Shown here in pieces: positions 1,430 through 12,139 of a stretch of 15,005 nucleotides of DNA. Location: UHGV virus genome UHGV-2053560. One strand, 5' to 3'. The first letter of the stretch is position 1. The number at the start of each line of letters is the position of its first letter. The stretch comes from a virus. The notes under the pieces are model-generated. The model saw only the letters and a list, made by a program, of their open reading frames with translations. It had not been told where the DNA came from and made no database searches. A program made the translations under genes and the position numbers.

Positions 1430-1813
1430 TCAACCAACCTGCCCGGCCAGGGAGCGGAGACGGCGCATGCCGGTCATCGCTGTGGCCACGTAGCTCGCCT
1501 TTCGGTTCACCACCTCCACCCAGACTTTCACGCCTTCAACCTTCACCGTATAAGTCTCTTTCATCTTGCTTCGCCCATAGTCGCCATATGTTTGCAAGTG
1601 AGCTGCCAGCGCGATGTCGCATGCTTGGCGAGCTAAAGGTGATTGCTTACTTCCTCGATTGATCAGTCGCATATAATCTCCTTGAGGGAGGGTTACCCCT
1701 CCCGGTCTCGTCAGGCCACGTATTCCGGTTTCATTTCCGCGAGCTGTTTTGACCGTGTGTGATTTATTCCCGCAGCGGCATTTGTTGAGCCAGTCAATAG
1801 TGAAAGTTTTCAT
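1430..1813 (-). CDS. Hypothetical protein (127 aa), early-left accessory gene
   Basis: ATG at 1813 overlaps the stop of the upstream gene (ATGA coupling). Non-repetitive protein-like composition; no family recognised by eye. Confidence 0.5.
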   Translation of the reverse strand: MKTFTIDWLNKCRCGNKSHTVKTARGNETGIRGLTRPGGVTLPQGDYMRLINRGSKQSPLARQACDIALAAHLQTYGDYGRSKMKETYTVKVEGVKVWVEVVNRKASYVATAMTGMRRLRSLAGQVG

Positions 1814-2484
1814 GATGCCTCTCCTTTACCTGCTTCGGTGACGTTTATTCCAGCGTTGTGCAGTGCCTCAAGAACCTGATGCTGCCTGTAAACCATTTCA
1901 GTGTGGTAAGGCTCGTCAAAATCGACGCGATGCAACATGCTATAGCATTGCGGAAGCACAACCTCCCGCAACTCCAGCTCAGCAATGCGCTTCTCTGCGG
2001 CTTCCAGCTTCTCGCGCATATCGTCAACGTACTCGACCAGAGATCCGCCAGCAGGAATTTCGCATTCCTCGACCAGTTGGAAGTAGATATCAGCTGCGGC
2101 CCGTGTGTTGCTATGCCTAGCGTCGCCCATCTCACCTTCACGAAGAGCATCGCGTTCGGCGGTAAGATTGGCTATTTTGCTGTCTTTGCCTTCCAGCTCA
2201 ACGCGCAGCCTCCCAACCGTAAGCGCAATATCCTCGTTCTCCTGGTCGCGGCGTTTGATGTATTGCTGGTTTCTTTCCAGTTCATCCAGTAGTGCCAAAG
2301 CAACCTTTGGATTAAAGGCAGCAATAAATTCAGCGTTGTTTTTCAGAACGTGTTGCGCAATGGCTTGGCTACTTAGTCGGACCTCATAACCACGTGCGCC
2401 ACGGTGTGGTTTATATGAGTCCCAGTCTCCCCACGTTGCATTTTCCGCCGCCTCACGCAGTGCCTGATGGTTAATCTCGCTCAT
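1810..2484 (-). CDS. Ea22-like coiled-coil protein
   Basis: 224-aa ORF. N-terminus MSEINHQALREAAENATWGDW resembles the conserved start of prophage ead/Ea22-like proteins as I recall them; central coiled-coil-like heptads (LEAAEKRIAELELRE). Position between the recombination genes and xis matches lambda ea22. Confidence 0.55.
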   Translation of the reverse strand: MSEINHQALREAAENATWGDWDSYKPHRGARGYEVRLSSQAIAQHVLKNNAEFIAAFNPKVALALLDELERNQQYIKRRDQENEDIALTVGRLRVELEGKDSKIANLTAERDALREGEMGDARHSNTRAAADIYFQLVEECEIPAGGSLVEYVDDMREKLEAAEKRIAELELREVVLPQCYSMLHRVDFDEPYHTEMVYRQHQVLEALHNAGINVTEAGKGEAS

Positions 2485-2485
2485 G

Positions 2486-2785
2486 TCACATCACCCTGAA
2501 TCCGTTGCATTTACGTAAAAAATCGCAGATATAGCCCTTCATTTTTTCGTGCCAATCTCGATCATTCCCATTGCACCAACCATCAGGTGGAGTCCAGTTT
2601 TCTATCAGAGCAGCCATTTTCTTTGCTTTTGCAGGAGTAGCTGTTGCGGTATCGCAGTAATGACGAGTGTCAACCAACGCATCCATACCATCGATATCAA
2701 GTACGCAAAACCATGTGTGATTCGGCATTCCAACAGATGGTATTTGTTGCCCACGTCGACGTTTATCAATAAGACATACACTCAC
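2486..2785 (-). CDS. Hypothetical protein (99 aa)
   Basis: ORF-track start at 2785 is a GTG overlapping the upstream stop (GTGA); an in-frame ATG at 2728 is an alternative. Cys/Trp-containing C-terminus; family not recognised. Confidence 0.45.
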
Positions 2786-2967
2786 TGCTTGCCTCCTTTG
2801 CGCAACATCGCATTCAGATATTTGTTGTCATTAACAGAACCGAAACTCTTTCTCTTAAGCAATTCCTCTCTCGATGGCATTGGCTTTACGCGTTGGCGAA
2901 TAATCATTTCTGCCGGAAGAATTCCTGGATTGTATGCAAGTCCTCTCATGGTAAATTCCTCAGTCAT
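2782..2967 (-). CDS. Hypothetical small protein (61 aa)
   Basis: In-frame ATG at 2967 lies inside AATGACTGA, overlapping the stop of the upstream 97-aa gene (translational coupling). The ORF-track N-terminal extension to 3099 would overlap that gene by 140 nt and is rejected. Confidence 0.4.
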
Positions 2968-3253
2968 TACTGATAGCGCCATAGCGTGAGCGGTAATTAC
3001 GCAGGCGCGGGTCAATTTCAGGGAAGTGGGTATATGTGGCTTTGCGGAATGGTCGGATTGATGTCTGGTAAATTCGCTCGCGTTCTTCTTTCTCTGCAAG
3101 CCATATACAATGGCGAAATTCCTTTTCCTCTTTCGTTTCCTGCGGTAGCGACATTATCAGGTCGTAGTTTTTTCTGAATTTATCCAGCACCTCCGATACG
3201 GAATTGCCGGAACAGCGGCGCGGGTCATCCGCACCATACAGAGGCGCTGGCAT
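2960..3253 (-). CDS. Hypothetical protein (97 aa)
   Basis: ATG at 3253 preceded by AGGAGA; charged, helical-looking protein; first gene after ssb in the leftward operon. Confidence 0.55.
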
Positions 3254-3266
3254 GATTTTCTCCTGA

Positions 3267-3773
3267 TTAAATTGCGTGAATAGCGTGACGAGGGAAGGGG
3301 AGAGTTACTGGTGCAAAGGGTATATCGTCGTCAAAATCCATCGGAGGTTCGTTGTGTTGTGCTGGTGATGATTGCTGCTGTGGCTTCTGTGATTGCCTGC
3401 TGGCTGCTTGTTGTTTGCTGTCGCCAATGCCGCCAAGCATTTGCATCACGCCATTAATTCCGACATGAACCTCGGTTGTGTAACGGTCTTGTCCTGACTG
3501 GTCTTTCCACTTTCTGGTTCTCAGCATTCCCTCGAAATAAATCTGATCACCTTTTTTCACATACTGCCCCACGACCTCAGCCAGTTTCCCGGATACAGCA
3601 ACACGATGCCATTCAGTCAATTCCTTTTGCTCGCCAGTATTTTTATCTCGCCATTGTTCTGACGTGGCTATTGTCAGGTTAGCGAACGCTGTTCCTGATG
3701 GTGAGTATCGAACTTCCGGGTCTTGTCCTACCCGACCAAGGATAATCACCTTATTTACGCCTCTGCTTGCCAT
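3267..3773 (-). CDS. ssb: Single-stranded DNA-binding protein (SSB), with a 15-aa tail after the canonical DDDIPF
   Basis: N-terminal OB-fold signature [23 protein letters not shown], Gln/Pro-rich linker, acidic tip [10 protein letters not shown], then a further [15 protein letters not shown] before the TAA at 3267-3269. Confidence 0.9.
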
Positions 3774-4481
3774 TTATGCCGCCTGTTTTAGTTCGTTAAC
3801 TCTGATGTTCATTACCTGAACGCATTTAGCCTGCGCCTCCTCGTTGCCAGCCATTAATTGCCAGTCACGCTGATAACGCTCGATGAGTTTTTTCTTGTCA
3901 GTTTCTGTTGATGCATAATCGCTGAAGTCTTTCAGGATTTGTTCGCAGTCAACCGATGGAGATTTCTGGTTGGTATTTTCTGGTGATGGTTTGTTATCTG
4001 ATGCTGGGATTGCCCATCCCGGCAGCGATGGAGGGAGCCAGTAAAATCCTGTTCCATCCTTGAGTTTTGCCCTGTGCCATCCCTGCTTTTTATCGAGAGA
4101 TGTTTGTGCGAAACCTTCCTCAAGGTTATACAGATACCGACCGATTCCCCACTGAACGGCAGCGCGCTTCATTGCACCGGAACGACCACCTTTGACGGCT
4201 TCTACCTGCGTGTTTTCAGCAGCATCCCATTTGGTTACCCATTCGGAATCAATCTTGATTGATATGCCGCATTCAACTCCGCCGTTGTTGGGAATATCGC
4301 GGTATTCATTGCGCCATCCTGCTTTGCCGCAAACATCGTCCAGGCGCTTCATGATTGCCCGGTTCGTGACATAAGCCAGCACCATAGCCCACACCTTGCC
4401 ATCGCGTGTTTTACCGCTTTGCTGTATTCGCCATTCGATATCTTCAGGGCTGAATGGCTCATCGAATTTATTCAAATCCAT
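3774..4481 (-). CDS. Rad52/Rad22-family single-strand annealing protein (phage recombinase, Sak-like)
   Basis: 235 aa. Conserved core resembling Rad52_Rad22 (WRNEYRD...GGVECGISIKIDSEWVTKWD...KGGRSGAMKRAAVQWGIGRYLYNL). Its stop (3774-3776) abuts the ssb start (3773). Confidence 0.7.
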   Translation of the reverse strand: MDLNKFDEPFSPEDIEWRIQQSGKTRDGKVWAMVLAYVTNRAIMKRLDDVCGKAGWRNEYRDIPNNGGVECGISIKIDSEWVTKWDAAENTQVEAVKGGRSGAMKRAAVQWGIGRYLYNLEEGFAQTSLDKKQGWHRAKLKDGTGFYWLPPSLPGWAIPASDNKPSPENTNQKSPSVDCEQILKDFSDYASTETDKKKLIERYQRDWQLMAGNEEAQAKCVQVMNIRVNELKQAA

Positions 4482-4489
4482 AATTCACC

Positions 4490-4660
4490 TCAGAATGGAC
4501 ATGGCCCAAGGAAATAACGCTGATTTAATACTTCAGTCTTTGCCGCATTCAAAAATACGCGAACACCTTCACGATCTCCCTTCTGGCGATACATTAACGC
4601 CTGCTGCGTGTACATGCGCCTCTGTAACTTGCTCTCCTTCACTGTGGTTGCAAGTGACAT
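4490..4660 (-). CDS. Small hypothetical protein (56 aa)
   Basis: ATG at 4660 preceded by GAAGGAGA at good spacing; product MSLATTVKESKLQRRMYTQQALMYRQKGDREGVRVFLNAAKTEVLNQRYFLGPCPF. Below the 60-aa ORF-track cutoff, found by manual translation. Confidence 0.35.
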   Translation of the reverse strand: MSLATTVKESKLQRRMYTQQALMYRQKGDREGVRVFLNAAKTEVLNQRYFLGPCPF

Positions 4661-4739
4661 GAATATCTCCTTCGTTACCGATTAATTCTTTCATCTGACG
4701 AATGAATTCTTCGTCTGACCAGTTATCTGTAAAACTCAT
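4569..4739 (-). CDS. Small hypothetical protein (56 aa), in another frame overlapping 4490..4660
   Basis: ATG at 4739 overlaps the stop of the upstream kil-like gene (ATGA). N-terminal half MSFTDNWSDEEFIRQMKELIGNEGDIH looks protein-like; the C-terminal half overlaps the SD-preceded 56-aa ORF and may be out of frame. Confidence 0.3.
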   Translation of the reverse strand: MSFTDNWSDEEFIRQMKELIGNEGDIHVTCNHSEGEQVTEAHVHAAGVNVSPEGRS

Positions 4740-4888
4740 TTCCTGCGATACCATGGAAGGTTGATAGCTGATTTCATCGCTTTATTTGCTTCAAGCCACA
4801 TTTTTGAATCACCAATAAATCTGGCTATTACTGCTTTGTTTTGTGCCGCACGAAGCATCTGGTGATTAATGGCTATTTCATTGCGCAT
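4736..4888 (-). CDS. Kil-like small protein (50 aa), tentative
   Basis: ATG at 4888 preceded by GGAGG; product MRNEIAINHQMLRAAQNKAVIARFIGDSKMWLEANKAMKSAINLPWYRRK. Placed by synteny (directly downstream of the cIII-like gene, as kil is in lambda) and a motif I recall only loosely. Confidence 0.4.
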   Translation of the reverse strand: MRNEIAINHQMLRAAQNKAVIARFIGDSKMWLEANKAMKSAINLPWYRRK

Positions 4889-5007
4889 AACGCCTCCAGT
4901 TGTTTCTTTGCTGCTCTGATTAATTGTTTAACTCGGCGTGATAATTCAGATTCGTGCGGGTAGAAAGCGGACATGACGCCGCTACCCGCGAGCTGAAAGT
5001 GCATCAT
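4873..5007 (-). CDS. cIII: CIII-like small regulator (44 aa), tentative
   Basis: ATG-ATG at 5007 preceded by AAGGAG; product MMHFQLAGSGVMSAFYPHESELSRRVKQLIRAAKKQLEALCAMK has an amphipathic helix similar in pattern to lambda CIII (ESLLERITRKLR...). The ORF-track extension to 5112 runs through a terminator and is rejected. Confidence 0.45.
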   Translation of the reverse strand: MMHFQLAGSGVMSAFYPHESELSRRVKQLIRAAKKQLEALCAMK

Positions 5008-5070
5008 GGGTAACTCCTTATATTTGATTGCATAACGAAAACGCCTCGAGTGAAGCGTTATTGGTATGCA

Positions 5071-5097
5071 TATAAAAAGGCCCTCACACTGGAGGGC
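5071..5097 (-). terminator. Putative rho-independent terminator (tL-like) between the moron gene and the cIII-like gene
   Basis: Stem GCCCTC (5080-5085) / GAGGGC (5092-5097) with a 6-nt loop, followed on the minus strand by CTTTTTATAT. Confidence 0.4.
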
Positions 5098-5201
5098 AAA
5101 GAAGATTTCCAATAATCAGAACAAGTCGGCTCCTGTTTAGTTACGAGCGACATTGCTCCGTGTATTCACTCGTTGGAATGGATACACAGTGCTTATTCGT
5201 A

Positions 5202-5672
5202 CTAATAAAATACCCAATTTTCTGTTTCTTGGTTGTGTCCAAAGTTATATTCAATAACTGGTGTTGATGTATCAATATTTTTCATCCCATCAACAAGAGT
5301 TGATACAACAGCCAAATCTTGTTTTATTCTCATTAAATGGTATTTCTTCCGGCGCAATAAACTTTCAATAGCAAGTTTCTTCGTTGGGAATGCAAAAGAT
5401 CTTTCTGCATTTTTTGCTACTTTCTTAATTGCATATCTATTTCTCCTTTGTTTCCATTCCTGTAACCACTGATTTGGTGCTGGTTTAAAATTAACAACCC
5501 AATGCGCAGGAACCAACCATGCATAATGCTCTGTCTGATGAAAAGCTATATATTGAAGTGCGAATATTTTTATCCCATCTTCTTCAACTGTCGACTGGAA
5601 TCTCCAGAAAACAGGCATTCCATCATGTTCAGTTTCTGATTCAGGAAAAGGTACGCTCCATGATTTTGTCAT
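5202..5672 (-). CDS. Hypothetical protein (156 aa), AT-rich moron in the N-to-cIII interval
   Basis: ATG at 5672 preceded by GAGGTGAGAT; ends in TAG at 5202-5204. Visibly more AT-rich than the flanking genes. Non-repetitive soluble-looking protein; no family recognised. Confidence 0.6.
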   Translation of the reverse strand: MTKSWSVPFPESETEHDGMPVFWRFQSTVEEDGIKIFALQYIAFHQTEHYAWLVPAHWVVNFKPAPNQWLQEWKQRRNRYAIKKVAKNAERSFAFPTKKLAIESLLRRKKYHLMRIKQDLAVVSTLVDGMKNIDTSTPVIEYNFGHNQETENWVFY

Positions 5673-5726
5673 ATCTCACCTCAAATAAGTGGTTTGCTGC
5701 GAAAGTAAATCCGCTTAAGTTACCTG

Positions 5727-5864
5727 TTATTTATCCCACCAAGTTCCGTATCTATCTATCCAGTTACACCAATCATCGACACTCCATTTTGTTGTGTCGC
5801 ATTTTGGCAACTGGCATGAATATCTACCTTCTTTGTAAAGTCGGCGTTTGACTTTCTTGAGCAT
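5727..5864 (-). CDS. Small Cys/Trp-rich hypothetical protein (45 aa)
   Basis: ATG at 5864 preceded by GAGGTGAGCC, which overlaps the N stop codon. Product MLKKVKRRLYKEGRYSCQLPKCDTTKWSVDDWCNWIDRYGTWWDK (3 Cys, 5 Trp). Found by manual translation. Confidence 0.35.
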   Translation of the reverse strand: MLKKVKRRLYKEGRYSCQLPKCDTTKWSVDDWCNWIDRYGTWWDK

Positions 5865-5872
5865 GGCTCACC

Positions 5873-6205
5873 TCAATCGTAATAAGCTGGAATTGATTTT
5901 CCGCGTTGCTTCTGGCGGCCTGAGCATGTCACACCCATTTCACTGCGTGGCTTGCTGTACCATGTGCGCTGATTCTTGCGCTCAATACGTTGCAGGTTGC
6001 TTTCAATCTGTTCGTGGTATTCAGCCAGCACCGTAAGGTCTATCGGATTCAGTGCGCTTTCTACTCGTGATTTCGGTTTGCGATTCAGCGAGAGAATAGG
6101 GCGGTTAACTGGTTTTGCGCTTACCCCAACCAACAGGGGATTTGCTGCTTTCCATTGAGCCTGTTTCTCTGCGCGACGTTCGCGGCGGCGTGTTTGTGCA
6201 TCCAT
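5873..6205 (-). CDS. N: Antitermination protein N
   Basis: Product from ATG at 6205 begins MDAQTRRRERRAEKQAQWKAANPLLVGV, the arginine-rich motif of lambda N as I recall it. SD AGGAG upstream; nutL and pL lie immediately upstream on the same strand. Confidence 0.9.
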   Translation of the reverse strand: MDAQTRRRERRAEKQAQWKAANPLLVGVSAKPVNRPILSLNRKPKSRVESALNPIDLTVLAEYHEQIESNLQRIERKNQRTWYSKPRSEMGVTCSGRQKQRGKSIPAYYD

Positions 6206-6364
6206 CTGGATTCTCCTGTCAGTTAGCTTTGGTGGTGTGTGGCAGTTGTAGTCCTGAACGAAAACCCCCCGCGATTGGCACATTGGCAGCTAATCCGGAA
6301 TCGCACTTCCGGCCAATGCTTCGTTTCGTATCACACACCCCAAAGCCTTCTGCTTTGAATGCTG

Positions 6365-6395
6365 CCCTTCTTCAGGGCTTAATTTTTAAGAGCGT
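6365..6395 (-). promoter_or_regulatory. nutL (boxB hairpin and boxA)
   Basis: Minus-strand GCCCTGAAGAAGGGC (lambda nutL boxB) at 6365-6379 and CGCTCTTAA (boxA) at 6387-6395, between pL and N. Confidence 0.8.
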
Positions 6396-6434
6396 CACCT
6401 TCATGGTGGTCAGTGCGTCCTGCTGATGCGCTCA

Positions 6435-6497
6435 GTATCACCGCCAGTGGTATTTATGTCAACACCGCCAGAGATAATTTATCACCGCAGATGGTTA
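6435..6497 (-). promoter_or_regulatory. pL promoter with operators oL1, oL2, oL3
   Basis: TATCACCGCCAGTGGTA (6437-6453), CAACACCGCCAGAGATA (6461-6477) and TATCACCGCAGATGGTT (6481-6497) match lambda oL1-oL3 as recalled. Minus-strand TTGACA (-35) and GATACT (-10) overlap them. Confidence 0.85.
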
Positions 6498-6640
6498 TCT
6501 GTATGTTTTTTATATGAATTTATTTTTTGCAGGGGGGCATTGTTTGGTAGGTGAGAGATCTGAATTGCTATGTTTAGTGAGTTGTATCTATTTATTTTTC
6601 AATAAATACAATTGGTTATGTGTTTTGGGGGCGATCGTGA

Positions 6641-6669
6641 GGCAAAGAAAACCCGGCGCTGAGGCCGGG
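6641..6669 (-). terminator. Rho-independent terminator immediately after rexB (tIMM-like)
   Basis: Stem CCCGGC (6652-6657) / GCCGGG (6664-6669), loop GCTGAG, followed on the minus strand by TTTTCTTTG. Confidence 0.6.
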
Positions 6670-7104
6670 TTATTCTTGTTCTCTGGTCAAATTATATAGT
6701 TGGAAAACAAGGATGCATATATGAATGAACGATGCAGAGGCAATGCCGATGGCGATAGTGGGTATCATGTAGCCGCTTATGCTGGAAAGAAGCAATAACC
6801 CGCAGAAAAACAAAGCTCCAAGCTCAACAAAACTAAGGGCATAGACAATAACTACCGATGTCATATACCCATACTCTCTAATCTTGGCCAGTCGGCGCGT
6901 TCTGCTTCCGATTAGAAACGTCAAGGCAGCAATCAGGATTGCAATCATGGTTCCTGCATATGATGACAATGTCGCCCCAAGACCATCTCTATGAGCTGAA
7001 AAAGAAACACCAGGAATGTAGTGGCGGAAAAGGAGATAGCAAATGCTTACGATAACGTAAGGAATTATTACTATGTAAACACCAGGCATGATTCTGTTCC
7101 GCAT
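6670..7104 (-). CDS. rexB: RexB, membrane component of the Rex abortive-infection/exclusion system
   Basis: 144 aa, multiple hydrophobic helices, directly downstream of rexA in the cI transcript. Size, position and sequence agree with lambda RexB as I recall it. Confidence 0.9.
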   Translation of the reverse strand: MRNRIMPGVYIVIIPYVIVSICYLLFRHYIPGVSFSAHRDGLGATLSSYAGTMIAILIAALTFLIGSRTRRLAKIREYGYMTSVVIVYALSFVELGALFFCGLLLLSSISGYMIPTIAIGIASASFIHICILVFQLYNLTREQE

Positions 7105-7119
7105 AATTACTCCTGATAA

Positions 7120-7959
7120 TTAATCCTTAACTTTGCCCACCTGCCTTTTAAAACATTCCAGTATATCACTTTTCATTCTTGCGTAGCAATATGCCATCTC
7201 TTCAGCTATCTCAGCATTGGTGACCTTGTTCAGAGGCGCTGAGAGATGGCCTTTTTCTGATAGATAATGTTCTGTTAAAATATCTCCGGCCTCATCTTTT
7301 GCCCGCAGGCTAATGTCTGAAAATTGAGGTGACGGGTTAAAAATAATATCCTTGGCAACCTTTTTTATATCCCTTTTAAATTTTGGCTTAATGACTATAT
7401 CCAATGAGTCAAAAAGCTCCCCTTCAATATCTGTTGCCCCTAAGACCTTTAATATATCGCCAAATACAGGTAGCTTGGCTTCTACCTTCACCGTTGTTCG
7501 GCCGATGAAATGCATATGCATAACATCGTCTTTGGTGGTTCCCCTCATCAGTGGCTCTATCTGAACGCGCTCTCCACTGCTTAATGACATTCCTTTCCCG
7601 ATTAAAAAATCTGTCAGATCGGATGTGGTCGGCCCGAAAACAGTTCTGGCAAAACCAATGGTGTCGCCTTCAACAAACAAAAAAGATGGGAATCCCAATG
7701 ATTCGTCATCTGCGAGGCTGTTCTTAATATCTTCAACTGAAGCTTTAGAGCGATTTATCTTCTGAACCAGACTCTTGTCATTTGTTTTGGTAAAGAGAAA
7801 AGTTTTTCCATCGATTTTATGAATATACAAATAATTGGAGCCAACCTGCAGGTGATGATTATCAGCCAGCAGAGAATTAAGGAAAACAGACAGGTTTATT
7901 GAGCGCTTATCTTTCCCTTTATTTTTGCTGCGGTAAGTCGCATAAAAACCATTCTTCAT
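7120..7959 (-). CDS. rexA: RexA, sensor/activator component of the Rex exclusion system
   Basis: 279 aa, immediately downstream of cI on the same strand. Size, position and N-terminus (MKNGFYATYRSKNKGKDKRS) agree with lambda RexA as I recall it. Confidence 0.9.
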   Translation of the reverse strand: MKNGFYATYRSKNKGKDKRSINLSVFLNSLLADNHHLQVGSNYLYIHKIDGKTFLFTKTNDKSLVQKINRSKASVEDIKNSLADDESLGFPSFLFVEGDTIGFARTVFGPTTSDLTDFLIGKGMSLSSGERVQIEPLMRGTTKDDVMHMHFIGRTTVKVEAKLPVFGDILKVLGATDIEGELFDSLDIVIKPKFKRDIKKVAKDIIFNPSPQFSDISLRAKDEAGDILTEHYLSEKGHLSAPLNKVTNAEIAEEMAYCYARMKSDILECFKRQVGKVKD

Positions 7960-8071
7960 AATTCAATCCATTTACTATGTTATGTTCTGAGGGGAGTGAA
8001 AATTCCCCTAATTCGATGAAGATTCTTGCTCAATTGTTATCAGCTATGCGCCGACCAGAACACCTTGCCGA

Positions 8072-8788
<717 letters not shown>

Positions 8789-8796
8789 TTAAATCT

Positions 8797-8860
8797 ATCA
8801 CCGCAAGGGATAAATATCTAACACCGTGCGTGTTGACTATTTTACCTCTGGCGGTGATAA
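8797..8860. promoter_or_regulatory. oR3-oR2-oR1 operators with divergent pRM and pR
   Basis: TATCACCGCAAGGGATA (8797-8813), TAACACCGTGCGTGTTG (8819-8835) and TACCTCTGGCGGTGATA (8843-8859). pR -35 TTGACT (8832-8837) and -10 GATAAT (8855-8860); cro SD AAGGAGG at 8875-8881. Confidence 0.9.
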
Positions 8861-8876
8861 TGGTTGCATGTACTAA

Positions 8877-9086
<210 letters not shown>

Positions 9087-9093
9087 ATAACCC

Positions 9094-9125
9094 CGCTCTT
9101 ACACATCCCAGCCCTGAAAAAGGGC
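9094..9125 (+). promoter_or_regulatory. nutR (boxA and boxB)
   Basis: CGCTCTTA (9094-9101) and boxB hairpin GCCCTGAAAAAGGGC (9111-9125), directly after the cro stop. Confidence 0.8.
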
Positions 9126-9204
9126 ATCAAATTAAACCACACCTATGGTGTATGCATTTATTTGCATACATTCAATCAATTGTTATCTAAGGAAATACTT
9201 ACAT

Positions 9205-9483
9205 ATGCAACTTACAAGTACTCGCAAGAAAGCGAATGCAATTACAAGCAACATCCTGAATCGAATTGCTGTACGTGGTCAGCGAAAGGTTGCTGATGCA
9301 TTAGGGATTAATGAATCGCAAATTTCGCGATGGAAAGACAGCTTTATCCCAAAGATGGCCATGCTTCTGGCTGTGCTGGAGTGGGGTGTTGAAGACGAGG
9401 AATTAGCAGAGCTGGCAAAGAAAGTAGCCATGGTGCTGACAAAAGAAAAGCCTCAAGACTGCTGCAACAGTTTTGAGGCCTGA
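9205..9483 (+). CDS. cII: CII-like transcriptional activator (non-lambda allele)
   Basis: ATG at 9205 preceded by TAAGGAAATACTTACAT, as at lambda cII. Product carries the conserved core ESQISRWK...IPK..MLLAVLEWGV, but the N- and C-termini differ from lambda CII. The ORF-track extension to 9145 is rejected. Confidence 0.75.
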   Translation: MQLTSTRKKANAITSNILNRIAVRGQRKVADALGINESQISRWKDSFIPKMAMLLAVLEWGVEDEELAELAKKVAMVLTKEKPQDCCNSFEA

Positions 9484-9517
9484 TGTAGAAAGACTGGATC
9501 AATCCACAGGAGTAATT

Positions 9518-9679
9518 ATGACAAAACGTCGTAAGAAATACCAGGAAAAAGAAGAGATTCGACACCCTGATTCACATGAGGGATTAGTGGTAGCCGCAGC
9601 AAATAACAGGGCGTTCGCAGAGCGCCTTGTTGGTGTTTACAGACTAGCCAAAGCAGGAGTGAAACATGGGCGTCGTTAA
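9518..9679 (+). CDS. Small basic hypothetical protein (53 aa) between cII and the O-like gene
   Basis: ATG at 9518 preceded by CAGGAGTAATT; product [53 protein letters not shown]; overlaps the O-like start by 14 nt. Confidence 0.4.
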   Translation: MTKRRKKYQEKEEIRHPDSHEGLVVAAANNRAFAERLVGVYRLAKAGVKHGRR

Positions 9680-10487
9680 GTTAGCTGATTACAGGCCTCA
9701 ACTGGAGGTCGTGGAGCATCGCGTGGCAGACACCGAAGATGGTTTCATGCGCGTTGCTAACGAGATTACCGACAGTCTGCTGATGGCTGATTTAACCGTC
9801 CGGCAGTTGAAGGTGATGCTCGCTATCATGCGCAAGACATACGGATTCAATAAGCCGATGGATCGACTCACAAACACGCAGATAGCAGCCATGACAGGTA
9901 TTCATCACACTCATGTTTGCGCTGCCAAGCGCCAGCTTATTGAGCGTAAATTCCTCATTGCTGATGGCGTGAAAATCGGAGTGAACAAGGTGGTTTCGCA
10001 GTGGATTAGCCAGGACAGCTTAACATTAGCCAAAACAGCTAATAAAACATTAGCCAAGTCGGCTAATGGGTATAAGCCAAGTCAGCTAAACACAAAAGAC
10101 AATATACAAAAGACAATAAATACAAATACCCCCTTACCCCCTAACGGGGGCGGCGATGGGCAGGTTAAACCTGAACGTCGCAAGGCAGAACGAATCGACT
10201 ACGAATCCTTCCTGAACGCCTACAACACCGAAGTCGGTGACAGACTTCCACACGCTGTTGCGGTCAACGAGAAACGCAAACGCCGCCTGAAGAAAATCAT
10301 CCCGCAACTGAAAACGCCAAACGTGGACGGTTTCAGGGCGTATGTCAGGGCGTTTGTGCATCAGGCCAAGCCGTTTTACTTCGGAGACAACGACACGGGC
10401 TGGACGGCCGATTTTGATTACCTGCTGAGAGAAGATTCGTTAACGGGAGTTCGTGAAGGGAAGTTTGCAGACAGGGGGATTGCATGA
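9666..10487 (+). CDS. Replication initiator, lambda O-like N-terminal domain (P22 gene 18-like)
   Basis: 273 aa. [36 protein letters not shown] parallels lambda O (LTKRQFKVLLAILRKTYGWNKPMDRITDSQL). Iteron array and AT-rich tract lie inside the gene; SD AGGAGTGA before the ATG. Confidence 0.8.
10004..10150 (+). repeat. Replication-origin-like iteron array, AT-rich tract and GC palindrome inside the O-like gene
   Basis: Four ~20-bp imperfect repeats with internal dyad symmetry (GATTAGCCAGGACAGCTTAA, CATTAGCCAAAACAGCTAAT, CATTAGCCAAGTCGGCTAAT, ATAAGCCAAGTCAGCTAAAC), then an AT-rich stretch (10091-10128) and CCCCCTAACGGGGG. Confidence 0.6.
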
Positions 10488-11860
10488 GACAGGATATCGA
10501 AGCGAGCGTTATCGGCGGTCTGCTGATTGGTGGATTAACGCCAACCGCCAGCGACGTTCTGGCAACGCTTGAGCCGGAAGCGTTTTCAATTCCGCTCTAC
10601 CGGAAAGCCTTCGAGGTTATCCGCAAGCAGGCGAGAAACAGAAACCTAATCGACGCGCTGATGGTTGCCGAGGCGTGCGGAGAGGAGCATTTCACGTCAA
10701 TCCTGATGACCAGCAAAAACTGCCCGAGTGCCGCAAACCTGAAGGGATATGCCGGAATGGTCGCGGATAACTATCACCGCCGTCTGGTGCTGGAAATCAT
10801 GGATGAAATGCGTGAACCAATTCAGAGCGGAACCATCGACGCATCGAGTCAGGCGATGGATGAACTTGTAAAGCGTCTTTCAGCCATCAGAAAGCCCCGT
10901 GACGAGGTAAAACCTGTACGGTTAGGGGAAATCATTACTGACTACACTGACACGCTTGACAGGCGTCTGAGGAACGGAGAAGAGTCCGATACCCTGAAGA
11001 CCGGAATCGAAGAACTTGATGCCATCACCGGAGGGATGAACGCGGAAGACCTGGTGATAATCGCTGCTCGTCCTGGTATGGGGAAAACCGAACTGGCGCT
11101 GAAGATTGCCGAAGGCGTTGCAAGCCGCGTTATTCCTGGTTCTGACGTCCGGCGCGGAGTATTGATTTTCTCAATGGAAATGAGCGCATTGCAGATTGCA
11201 GAGCGAAGTATTGCCAACGCCGGGAGGATGTCGGTTAGCGTGCTGCGAAATCCTGCATCGATGGATGACGAGGGCTGGGCACGTGTTGCTAACGGCATGA
11301 GTCAGCTTGCAGATTTGGATGTATGGGTAGTCGATGCCTCGCGGTTATCGGTCGAAGAAATACGCTCAATCGCAGAACGGCACAAACAGGAAAATCCAAA
11401 CCTGTCACTCATCATGGCGGATTATCTTGGCCTGATTGAGAAGCCGAAAGCAGACCGCAACGACCTTGCAATTGCTCACATCTCCGGAAGCCTGAAGGCG
11501 ATGGCGAAAGACCTAAAAACGCCTGTTATCTCCCTGAGTCAGCTTTCGCGCGATGTTGAGAAGCGACCAAACAAACGCCCGACAAACGCAGATTTGCGTG
11601 ATTCAGGAAGCATTGAACAGGACGCAGACTCAATCATCATGCTCTATCGGGAAGCGGTATATGACGAGAACAGTAGCGCCGCGCCATTTGCTGAAATCAT
11701 CGTGACGAAAAACCGTTTTGGCTCGCTTGGTACGGTTTACCAGCGATTCTGTAACGGACACTTTGTTGCATGTGACCAGGATGAAGCCAGACAGATTTGC
11801 ACAGCATCAAATGCGCCTGCTGCGCGTGGCAGACGATATGCACAAGGGGCGGACGTATGA
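10484..11860 (+). CDS. DnaB-family replicative DNA helicase (P22 gene 12-like)
   Basis: 458 aa. Walker [14 protein letters not shown], DnaB-like motifs ([44 protein letters not shown]). ATG overlaps the O-like stop (ATGA). Confidence 0.9.
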
Positions 11861-11940
11861 CCATCTACATCACTGAGCTTGTAACAGGCCTGCTGGTAAT
11901 CGCAGGCCTTTTTATTTGGGGGAGAGTAAATCGTGGTTGA
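11857..11940 (+). CDS. Possible 27-aa hydrophobic peptide
   Basis: ATG overlaps the helicase stop (ATGA); product [27 protein letters not shown] is one predicted transmembrane helix. Very short, so speculative. Confidence 0.25.
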
Positions 11941-12139
11941 GTTGATTTTCTCTGCATTGAGGCTTCTCGGTGCTCTGTGGATGGTGGCGACGTTCATTGT
12001 GGTTGCTGGCTGTTTTGTCCGGTTGGTAGGCGAAGGTAAAGACCTGGTGGGTGTGCTTTTCGGTAGCATTCTCCTGTGGGTGATTATCGGTGTTGCGCCT
12101 GTCGCTGTAGCAAAAATGGCGTGGCGTTTTGTGAGTTGA
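11933..12139 (+). CDS. Small two-helix membrane protein (68 aa, GTG start)
   Basis: GTG at 11933 preceded by GGGGGAGAG; two hydrophobic segments (LIFSALRLLGALWMVATFIVVAGCFV and LVGVLFGSILLWVIIGVAPVAVA). Occupies the slot between the replication genes and ninB. Confidence 0.4.
   Translation: MVELIFSALRLLGALWMVATFIVVAGCFVRLVGEGKDLVGVLFGSILLWVIIGVAPVAVAKMAWRFVS

Follow-up and report, generated by a model that had tools for sequence, protein, structure and literature searches.

Results

Early region and lambda block

The window, by which we mean the whole 15,005-nucleotide stretch of DNA analyzed here (virus genome UHGV-2053560), carries an early region in which Pfam domains were found for N, RexB, RexA, a cI-type repressor, Cro, Phage_CII, Phage_rep_O and DnaB. 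The features in the left part of this region, up to and including the rutB sequence, are as follows.

5873-6283, minus strand: N antiterminator, lambda type (Pfam N36, E 2.5e-26; 95% amino acid identity to lambda N)
6363-6379, minus strand: nutL (0/17 mismatches to the annotated lambda Nutl)
6436-6496, minus strand: OL1 (6436-6452), OL2 (6460-6476) and OL3 (6480-6496), 17-mers identical to lambda
6670-7104, minus strand: rexB (Pfam RexB, E 8.5e-92)
7120-7959, minus strand: rexA (Pfam RexA, E 1e-97)
8072-8785, minus strand: cI repressor (HTH_3 and Peptidase_S24)
8796-8859, plus strand: OR3 (8796-8812), OR2 (8819-8835) and OR1 (8843-8859), identical to lambda
8833-8861, plus strand: pR, promoter match TTGACT-17-GATAAT
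8886-9086, plus strand: cro (Pfam Cro)
9094-9111, plus strand: rutA (1 mismatch to lambda)
9110-9126, plus strand: nutR (0 mismatches to lambda)
9127-9146, plus strand: rutB, lambda type, directly after nutR (0 mismatches to lambda)

From 6051 to 9207 the window differs from lambda at a total of 3 positions. There is not one nucleotide mismatch in rexB, rexA, cI or cro, or in either of the 17-nt sites annotated as Nutl and Nutr in the lambda record, and all six operators OL1-3 and OR1-3 are the lambda 17-mers at the corresponding positions. The original prediction that the rexB-rexA-cI-cro block, with its six operators and both nut sites, is lambda-like was thus borne out in every element. In the immunity operon, cI is followed by the adjacent genes rexA and rexB. 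The left edge of the block falls within the last 25 or so codons of N, where the mismatches cluster at 5894-5948; the first 110 amino acids of N are identical to those of lambda N except for one residue, and the differences are found at the C-terminal end. The arginine-rich arm of N is accordingly of the lambda type. Given that the segment from about 5950 to 9207 is essentially identical to lambda, the element is predicted from its sequence to have lambda immunity and should also have lambda N/nut antitermination and Rex exclusion.

Position of the two seams

To the right of this block the similarity changes twice within a few hundred nucleotides, and the features around these two changes are listed below.

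9195-9200, minus strand: pRE -10, on the lambda side of seam 1
9205-9207, plus strand: seam 1, the cII ATG, with lambda sequence on the left and P22-c1-type sequence on the right
9205-9483, plus strand: cII, P22 c1 allele, 92 aa (Pfam Phage_CII)
9214-9227, minus strand: putative CII binding site of pRE (TTGC-N6-TTGT, from the CL707 (EF120459) annotation and the P22 C1 site)
9446-9510, minus strand: putative oop-like antisense RNA with terminator hairpin (stem 9451-9481, then a U tract)
9493-9525, plus strand: seam 2, the conserved 33-bp pO/oop boundary, P22-like on the left and HK97-like on the right

The first seam was placed by aligning the window with lambda, HK544, an E. coli prophage, HK97 and P22. 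In BLAST, similarity to lambda stops at 9207 and returns only as a 70-bp stretch at 11857-11926. At the amino acid level the CII protein is 90% identical to P22 C1, 88% to HK544 CII and 55% to lambda CII. It had been proposed that cII becomes a different allele immediately after nutR; the allele is indeed different, but the switch takes place at the cII ATG, 79 bp downstream of nutR, past the lambda rutB and inside the pRE promoter. Similarly, the coordinates 9666-11860 that had been assigned to the junction are the span of the two replication genes, and the actual junction is at 9205-9207. The putative CII site at the pRE -35 would sit within the first codons of cII itself and would therefore travel with that gene, leaving the pRE -10 as lambda sequence, and this hybrid pRE may have a role of its own.

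The second seam lies at 9493-9525, which exactly matches the 33-mer given for the pO/oop region and described as common to lambdoid phages (PMC3349717), and it can also be seen in a five-phage alignment. On the replication side, the match to HK97 begins at 9493. The suggestion of a lambdoid module boundary therefore stands, but not as a single seam, since lambda sequence gives way to P22-type cII at 9207 and the P22-type cII to HK97-type replication genes at 9493-9525. The predicted structure of the putative oop-like RNA, a hairpin followed by a U tract, has a folding energy of -26.5 kcal/mol (z = -3.74), and the terminator of this RNA lines up with the one annotated for oop in P22. No Rfam family matched the window at the gathering thresholds, so the identification of this RNA rests on the alignment to P22 and lambda together with the fold.

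The replication module

The segment 9493-11888 is an HK97-type replication block with 97.8% nucleotide identity to HK97. Its features, including the boundary at its right-hand end, are given here.

9518-9679, plus strand: small ORF, 53 aa, HK97 gp53 homologue (98% amino acid identity; phrog_1331, unknown function)
9666-10487, plus strand: O-like replication initiator, 273 aa (Pfam Phage_rep_O, PF04492, residues 19-113, E 5.8e-33)
10002-10119, plus strand: putative origin inside the initiator gene (found by repeat search; iterons, then an A-rich stretch)
10484-11860, plus strand: DnaB-family replicative helicase, 458 aa (Pfam DnaB in the N-terminal and DnaB_C in the C-terminal part)
11857-11926, plus strand: conserved stretch of 70 bp at the right-hand boundary (identity 96% to the lambda sequence between ren and ninB and 97% to ST104)

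Amino acid identity of the initiator is 99.6% to HK97 gp54, 51% to P22 gp18 and 42% to lambda O, the last over residues 17-149 only. A comparison of the initiator with solved structures gave no match. The helicase aligns over its full length with solved DnaB structures (E 2.7e-66) and is 99.6% identical to HK97 gp55 and 90% to P22 gp12, with no real match to lambda P. These domains and identities uphold the view that an O-like initiator and a DnaB-family helicase take the place of lambda O and P.

It could be argued that replication nonetheless proceeds as in lambda, with the O-like protein in need of a P-like loader and host DnaB and with the DnaB homologue as an accessory. The N-terminal domain of the initiator is indeed homologous to lambda O and the iteron geometry is that of lambda. 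However, no lambda P-type loader or other P homologue was found between O and the nin region, and O is followed by the full-length DnaB homologue, whose start overlaps the initiator stop in ATGA. Additionally, the C-terminal half of the initiator has no similarity to the region of lambda O that contacts P, and P22 gp12 substitutes for host DnaB. We consider a lambda-like route very unlikely in this element, where a lambda-type O and P module is not what was found.

A phage helicase is present and a lambda P-type loader is not, so the original description of the module as "P22-style" is correct for its architecture. It does not hold for relatedness, since the nearest relatives are HK97 and HK544 (97-98% nucleotide identity) and P22 is at about 80%. 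All three genes of the HK97 module have close homologues here, gp53 at 98% and gp54 and gp55 at 99.6% amino acid identity each, while the C-terminal half of the O gene is only about 60-66% identical in nucleotides to P22. Four iterons of about 22 nt occupy 10002-10090 with start-to-start spacings of 20, 24 and 23, which are common to the lambda and P22 origins, but their sequences differ from both (TTAGCCAAAACAGCTAA in the window versus TTTACCAGATCGGTAAA in P22). Directly after the iterons, at 10092-10119, comes an A-rich tandem 14-mer (AT skew +0.42), and this 14-mer pair is identical to the one in P22. Iterons within the initiator gene with an A/T-rich stretch behind them are likewise the arrangement in P22 and lambda. 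With the initiator at 51% identity to gp18, the DNA of its N-terminal part unrelated and the iterons different, the origin specificity is probably other than that of P22. A terminator-like match on the minus strand at 10048-10068 was rejected, because it corresponds to the dyad within iteron 3. The right-hand boundary holds a terminator-like hairpin at 11886-11909 followed by a T tract, and at the corresponding position a lambda-like terminator is annotated in P22.

The same join in other genomes

The join is already documented in HK544, in GenBank immunity-region records and in prophages of E. coli. A single 3,854-bp match to HK544 runs across it at 97.4% (window 8037-11888), and the join was found in 16 of the 5,426 complete genomes of E. 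coli. The prophage of E. coli CUVET20-1667 (NZ_CP115361) matches 5070-11926 at 99.4%, with zero mismatches over 5493-9841. Among IMG/VR contigs, the P22-type cII and HK97-type replication block are found joined to non-lambda immunity regions, with the match starting at 9188. The GenBank records EF120455 and EF120457-EF120459, annotated as immunity regions (HK544, HK244, HK542 and CL707), document the join as well; we take them to come from the work of Degnan et al. in 2007, who reportedly described wild phages with lambda immunity.

The region had been proposed to be a mosaic rather than of uniform identity to one known phage. In agreement with this, when the whole window was searched by megablast against phages and complete E. 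coli genomes, no record covered all of it: at most 50% was covered by a phage record and 74% by an E. coli genome. A 44-mer that crosses the right boundary was also used for exact-pattern scans of GTDB genomes and IMG/VR, and again nothing covered the whole window. In GTDB this 44-mer matches only one contig, 10 kb long and binned into a Bacillota MAG.

The P22-like features could mean that the join was made directly by recombination between lambda and P22, or that we are looking at a laboratory hybrid of the two such as lambda hy106. Hybrids with lambda immunity and P22 replication do exist, and their host requirements were reportedly examined by Taylor and Shizuya in 1981. The architecture of the window is that of P22 c1-orf48-18-12, the P22 proteins gp12 and C1 are each 90% identical to their counterparts here, and the lambda block is near base-perfect. 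However, the replication DNA is 97.8% identical to HK97 against about 80% to P22, with no P22 nucleotide match at all over 9527-10082, and neither the initiator (51% to gp18) nor the iterons are those of P22, so that P22 replication specificity is not what the module carries. The flanks consist of phi80-type int/xis and a Rad52/SSB recombination module, and the identical join occurs in natural isolates of dog, pig and human origin. The hybrid hy106, for its part, kept the lambda cII and has its crossover in pO, which does not agree with the P22-type cII of the window. A direct cross or laboratory hybrid is thus highly improbable, and we reject it, since the identity profile in practice rules it out.

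That the junction is an assembly chimera of two co-resident lambdoid prophages with common boundary sequences is scarcely credible: near-identical stretches among such prophages can mislead short-read assemblers and the whole window is matched by no database record, but six independent complete genomes of E. coli contain the 1,201-bp stretch over both seams at 99.9%, the isolated phage HK544 has it at 96.8%, and neither reading frames nor regulatory sites are broken at the seams. Since independent complete genomes share the join, it is very unlikely that 9100-9600 is not contiguous.

Discussion

Our preferred reading, to which we give a probability of about 93%, is that the window comes from a temperate lambdoid phage or prophage and holds an early region assembled from exchangeable modules, namely a lambda block, a P22-type cII and an HK97-type replication module. 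Nothing in the data speaks against this mosaic reading. The seam is real but ordinary in a lambda-like phage genome, and the join came down from an HK544-like or prophage lineage and did not arise in this genome. As both seams are located at short sequences conserved among lambdoid phages, homologous recombination at such boundary sequences fits as their origin.

Established knowledge of lambda O and of P22 gp18 and gp12 suggests how such an element may work. Lambda CI would repress pR, and transcription from pR would read through cro, cII and gp53 into the gene for the O-like initiator. The N-terminal domain of the initiator would bind the four iterons inside its own gene, and its C-terminal part would then recruit the DnaB-family helicase of the phage, whose gene appears to be translationally coupled. 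Recruitment of its own helicase would replace the lambda route, in which P captures host DnaB. By analogy with these systems, the initiator is expected to bind the iterons and to draw in the helicase by direct interaction, and replication would not depend on host DnaB.

The case is a textbook one of lambdoid modular exchange and has little weight beyond annotation. Each seam keeps interdependent pairs on one side, as is the case for N and the nut sites, for CI and Cro with their operators, for CII and the inferred pRE site, and for the initiator with its iterons and helicase. The element would be best annotated as having lambda immunity and an HK97-type replication module, which probably does not need host DnaB, and not as having a "lambda-like O/P". 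At somewhat less than even odds, the combination of phi80-type int/xis, Rad52/SSB/Abc2 recombination, lambda N-imm-rex, P22-type cII and HK97-type replication may be one that has not been deposited, and the hybrid pRE that results from a seam at the cII ATG (lambda -10, P22-type -35 and CII site) could tune the establishment of lysogeny in a manner unlike lambda.

Among known systems, HK544 (NC_019767) has the same join of cI-cro-nutR to P22-type cII and gp53-O-helicase with identical breakpoints, but two unrelated ORFs replace rexAB and the 3' half of its cII has diverged (88% amino acid identity). The CUVET20-1667 prophage shares the join and breakpoints with rexB-rexA included. In both, the integration and recombination modules are unlike those of the window, and so is the sequence immediately to the right of the helicase. 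HK97 (NC_002167) resembles the window over gp53-gp54(O)-gp55(helicase), with 97.8% nucleotide and 98-99.6% amino acid identity, and over cI-cro at 97.8% nucleotide identity. It lacks rexAB, and it has another nutR region and another cII allele because its similarity to the window ends at 9100, just past cro.

Lambda (NC_001416) is alike from N, apart from the C-terminal end, through nutR and rutB up to the cII ATG. Beyond this point it has its own cII (55% amino acid identity), a different O C-terminal domain and iterons, the P loader and ren, and it is without a phage helicase. The c1-orf48-18-12 region of P22 (NC_002371) shares with the window its gene order, an origin inside the initiator gene, the iteron spacing and the A-rich 14-mer pair, as well as a DnaB-type helicase and a C1/CII protein at 90% amino acid identity each. 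P22 differs in the initiator (51%, with unrelated N-terminal DNA), in the iterons and in the immunity region (c2/cro), and orf48, the small ORF upstream of its initiator gene, has no homology to gp53. Lambda hy106, or lambda cI857(18,12)P22, is a viable hybrid of lambda immunity with P22 orf48-18-12 and a crossover in pO (PMC3349717). It resembles the window in combining lambda immunity with an initiator-plus-helicase module and in a crossover at pO/oop, the place of the second seam, but it retains the lambda cII and carries genuine P22 genes, whereas the window has a P22-type cII and HK97-type genes.

Results

The window (15 kb) comprises the early region of a lambdoid element, phage or prophage, with the gene content listed below.

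Gene content of the window (coordinates; strand; content)
1-1740; integrase +, excisionase and DUF4060 gene -; phi80-type integrase and excisionase and a DUF4060 gene, 99.8% identical to HK225/mEp237 and 99.4% to phi80
1810-4481; -; Ea22-like, DUF7739, DUF2737, Abc2, SSB and Rad52/Rad22-family annealing protein
4736-5112; -; kil, cIII
5202-5672; -; HK97 gp45-like ORF, function unknown
5873-9086; - (cro +); N, rexB, rexA, cI, cro
9205-11860; +; cII, 53-aa ORF, O-like initiator, DnaB-family helicase
11933-end; +; small membrane ORF and nin region (ninB, DNA methyltransferase, ninE/F/G/H)

The integrase gene runs opposite to the leftward early operon, and its ORF opens at window base 1, so the true start may be upstream. 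The recombination module (2960-4481) consists of Abc2, SSB and the annealing protein rather than lambda Red or P22/HK97 Erf, and over 3428-5069 its identity to the otherwise best-matching E. coli prophage is just 91%. The 156-aa ORF at 5202-5672 (phrog_1636, without a Pfam match) lies between N and cIII, a place occupied in lambda by sieB, ral and ea10.

The original prediction was of a mosaic join between a lambda-type immunity region and a P22-style replication module. The join is real and was interpreted correctly in outline, although it was placed slightly off and named after too distant a relative. The likeness of the immunity block to lambda is right to the base, because the lambda features mapped there by global alignment show no mismatch: this holds for rexB, rexA, cI and cro, for the operators OL1, OL2, OL3, OR3, OR2 and OR1, and for the annotated nutL and nutR sites and rutB, with a single mismatch in rutA. 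By BLAST, window 5889-9207 corresponds to lambda 35047-38362 in one piece at 99.1%, the differences piling up in the last codons of N (5894-5948) and only three mismatches (6309, 6429 and 9107) falling within 6051-9207. The left edge of the block (5889-5950) is another intragenic seam, within the final ~25 codons of N; the N protein differs from that of lambda at its C-terminal end and is otherwise identical but for one residue.

The right end of the block was located by aligning 9080-9300 with lambda, HK544, an E. coli prophage, HK97 and P22. The lambda match runs through GGAAATACTTACATATG with the single mismatch at 9107, and from the very next base the sequence diverges from lambda and follows that of P22 c1; the first seam is therefore the cII start codon (9205-9207). 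A junction just after nutR had been proposed, and this is indeed a lambdoid boundary, but its position is 79 bp on from the downstream end of nutR (9110-9126), past rutB. The 92-aa cII product is 90% identical to P22 C1, 88% to HK544 CII and 55% to lambda CII. Carrying over the annotations of CL707 (EF120459) and P22 puts the predicted pRE -10 (9195-9200) on the lambda side and the predicted CII binding site with the -35 (TTGC-N6-TTGT, minus strand, 9214-9227) on the P22-type side. Because the site lies there, we infer that the CII activator and its putative pRE site were inherited together.

The second seam, between P22-type cII and the replication genes, is an exact copy (9493-9525) of the 33-bp ACTGGATCAATCCACAGGAGTAATTATGACAAA, described by Hayes and co-workers as a conserved sequence of lambdoid phages at the oop promoter and oop 5' end (PMC3349717). 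In the alignment, sequence to its left, which takes in the 3' end of cII and the terminator hairpin of oop, is P22-like, and sequence to its right is like HK97 and HK544. Folding of the minus strand of 9436-9510 gives a strong hairpin with a U tract behind it (-26.5 kcal/mol, z = -3.74), the structure that an oop-like antisense RNA should have. The conserved 53-aa gp53-like ORF (9518-9679; phrog_1331, no known function) lies between cII and the initiator gene, overlapping the pO/oop region and, by 14 nt, the initiator start; P22 has the unrelated orf48 in this position.

Replication proteins (coordinates; protein; amino acid identity)
9666-10487; initiator; HK97 gp54 99.6%, P22 gp18 51%, lambda O 42% over residues 17-149 only
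10484-11860; helicase; HK97 gp55 99.6%, P22 gp12 90%, no real similarity to lambda P

The initiator, the repeats inside its gene and the adjoining DnaB-family helicase bear out the P22 gene 18 / gene 12 architecture. The module itself is that of HK97: over 9493-11888 nucleotide identity is 97.8% to HK97, 97.4% to HK544 and 89% to the P22-like phage ST104, as against about 80% to P22, and that only from 10082 onward. The helicase has DnaB N-terminal and C-terminal domains, can be aligned over its whole length with solved DnaB structures (E 2.7e-66), and its ATG overlaps the initiator stop codon in ATGA. Four ~22-nt repeats within the initiator gene (10002-10090) start 20, 24 and 23 nt apart, exactly as in the lambda and P22 origins, but each of the three has repeat sequences of its own; the A-rich tandem 14-mer 3' of them (10092-10119) is identical to that of P22. 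Origin specificity is thus probably distinct from both phages. P22 nucleotide similarity sets in with the fourth iteron and the A-rich stretch, which suggests an old intragenic seam at 10082 between the DNA-binding and C-terminal halves of the initiator; some IMG/VR matches begin at 10113.

A 70-bp stretch (11857-11926) forms the right edge of the module; it is common to lambda, where it lies between ren and ninB, and ST104, and contains a terminator-like hairpin (11886-11909). Adjoining the hairpin is a very hydrophobic 68-aa ORF (11933-12139; phrog_1165, unknown function) with strongly negative local AT skew (-0.49), a stretch found in every one of the 24 IMG/VR contigs that a 44-mer spanning the boundary retrieved. 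The replication and nin region is also 97% identical to JAEZIN010000021.1 (4441-8000), a contig of 10.4 kb that bears the label 'MAG: Bacillota bacterium' but almost certainly comes from an enterobacterial phage and was mis-binned.

Discussion

The join of lambda immunity, P22-type cII and HK97-type replication is not new, being known both in principle and in exact sequence. In HK544 a single BLAST alignment (8037-11888, 97.4%) extends from cI through the helicase, with the first seam at the same place, and the prophage of E. coli CUVET20-1667, which carries rexB-rexA-cI-cro-cII-gp53-O-helicase, matches 5070-11926 at 99.4% and 5493-9841 without mismatch. A probe of 1,201 bp that spans the two seams was found, at a minimum coverage of 80%, in 16 of the 5,426 complete E. 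coli genomes (at 99.9% in six), and it is present in HK544 and HK542 as well. The GenBank 'immunity region' records of HK544, HK244, HK542 and CL707, which we take to be from Degnan et al. 2007, are 95.7-98.2% identical to 8700-9492; that of CL707, the one inspected, has a 279-bp cII and annotates the layout of pRE and the CII site. In IMG/VR contigs P22-type cII and HK97-type replication also sit beside other immunity regions, with matches from 9188.

Uniform identity to a single known phage is not seen. No phage record, complete E. coli genome or IMG/VR contig matches the window end to end, the best coverage being 50% for a phage record and 74% for an E. coli genome, and taken in its entirety the element may be a set of known modules in a combination not yet deposited.

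Since it is identical in sequence to parts of lambda that have been tested there, the element is expected to be homoimmune with that phage and to use lambda N/nut antitermination and Rex exclusion. Transcription from pR, under lambda CI and Cro, would continue through to the genes for replication. If these proteins act like lambda O and P22 gp18/gp12, whose workings are established, the initiator would bind its own iterons and recruit a hexameric helicase that the phage itself encodes; initiation would then need no P-type loader and probably no host DnaB.

Each interacting set lies on the same side of the seams: N with the nut sites, CI/Cro with the operators, CII with its putative pRE site, and the initiator with its iterons and helicase. 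Such keeping of pairs would be expected if non-functional recombinants were lost, and it agrees with a report that interdependent genes of lambdoid phages are transferred together (PMC9836094). Lambda hy106, a laboratory hybrid in which a P22-type replication module accompanies lambda immunity, is viable, and its crossover is in the same pO sequence as the second seam (PMC3349717).
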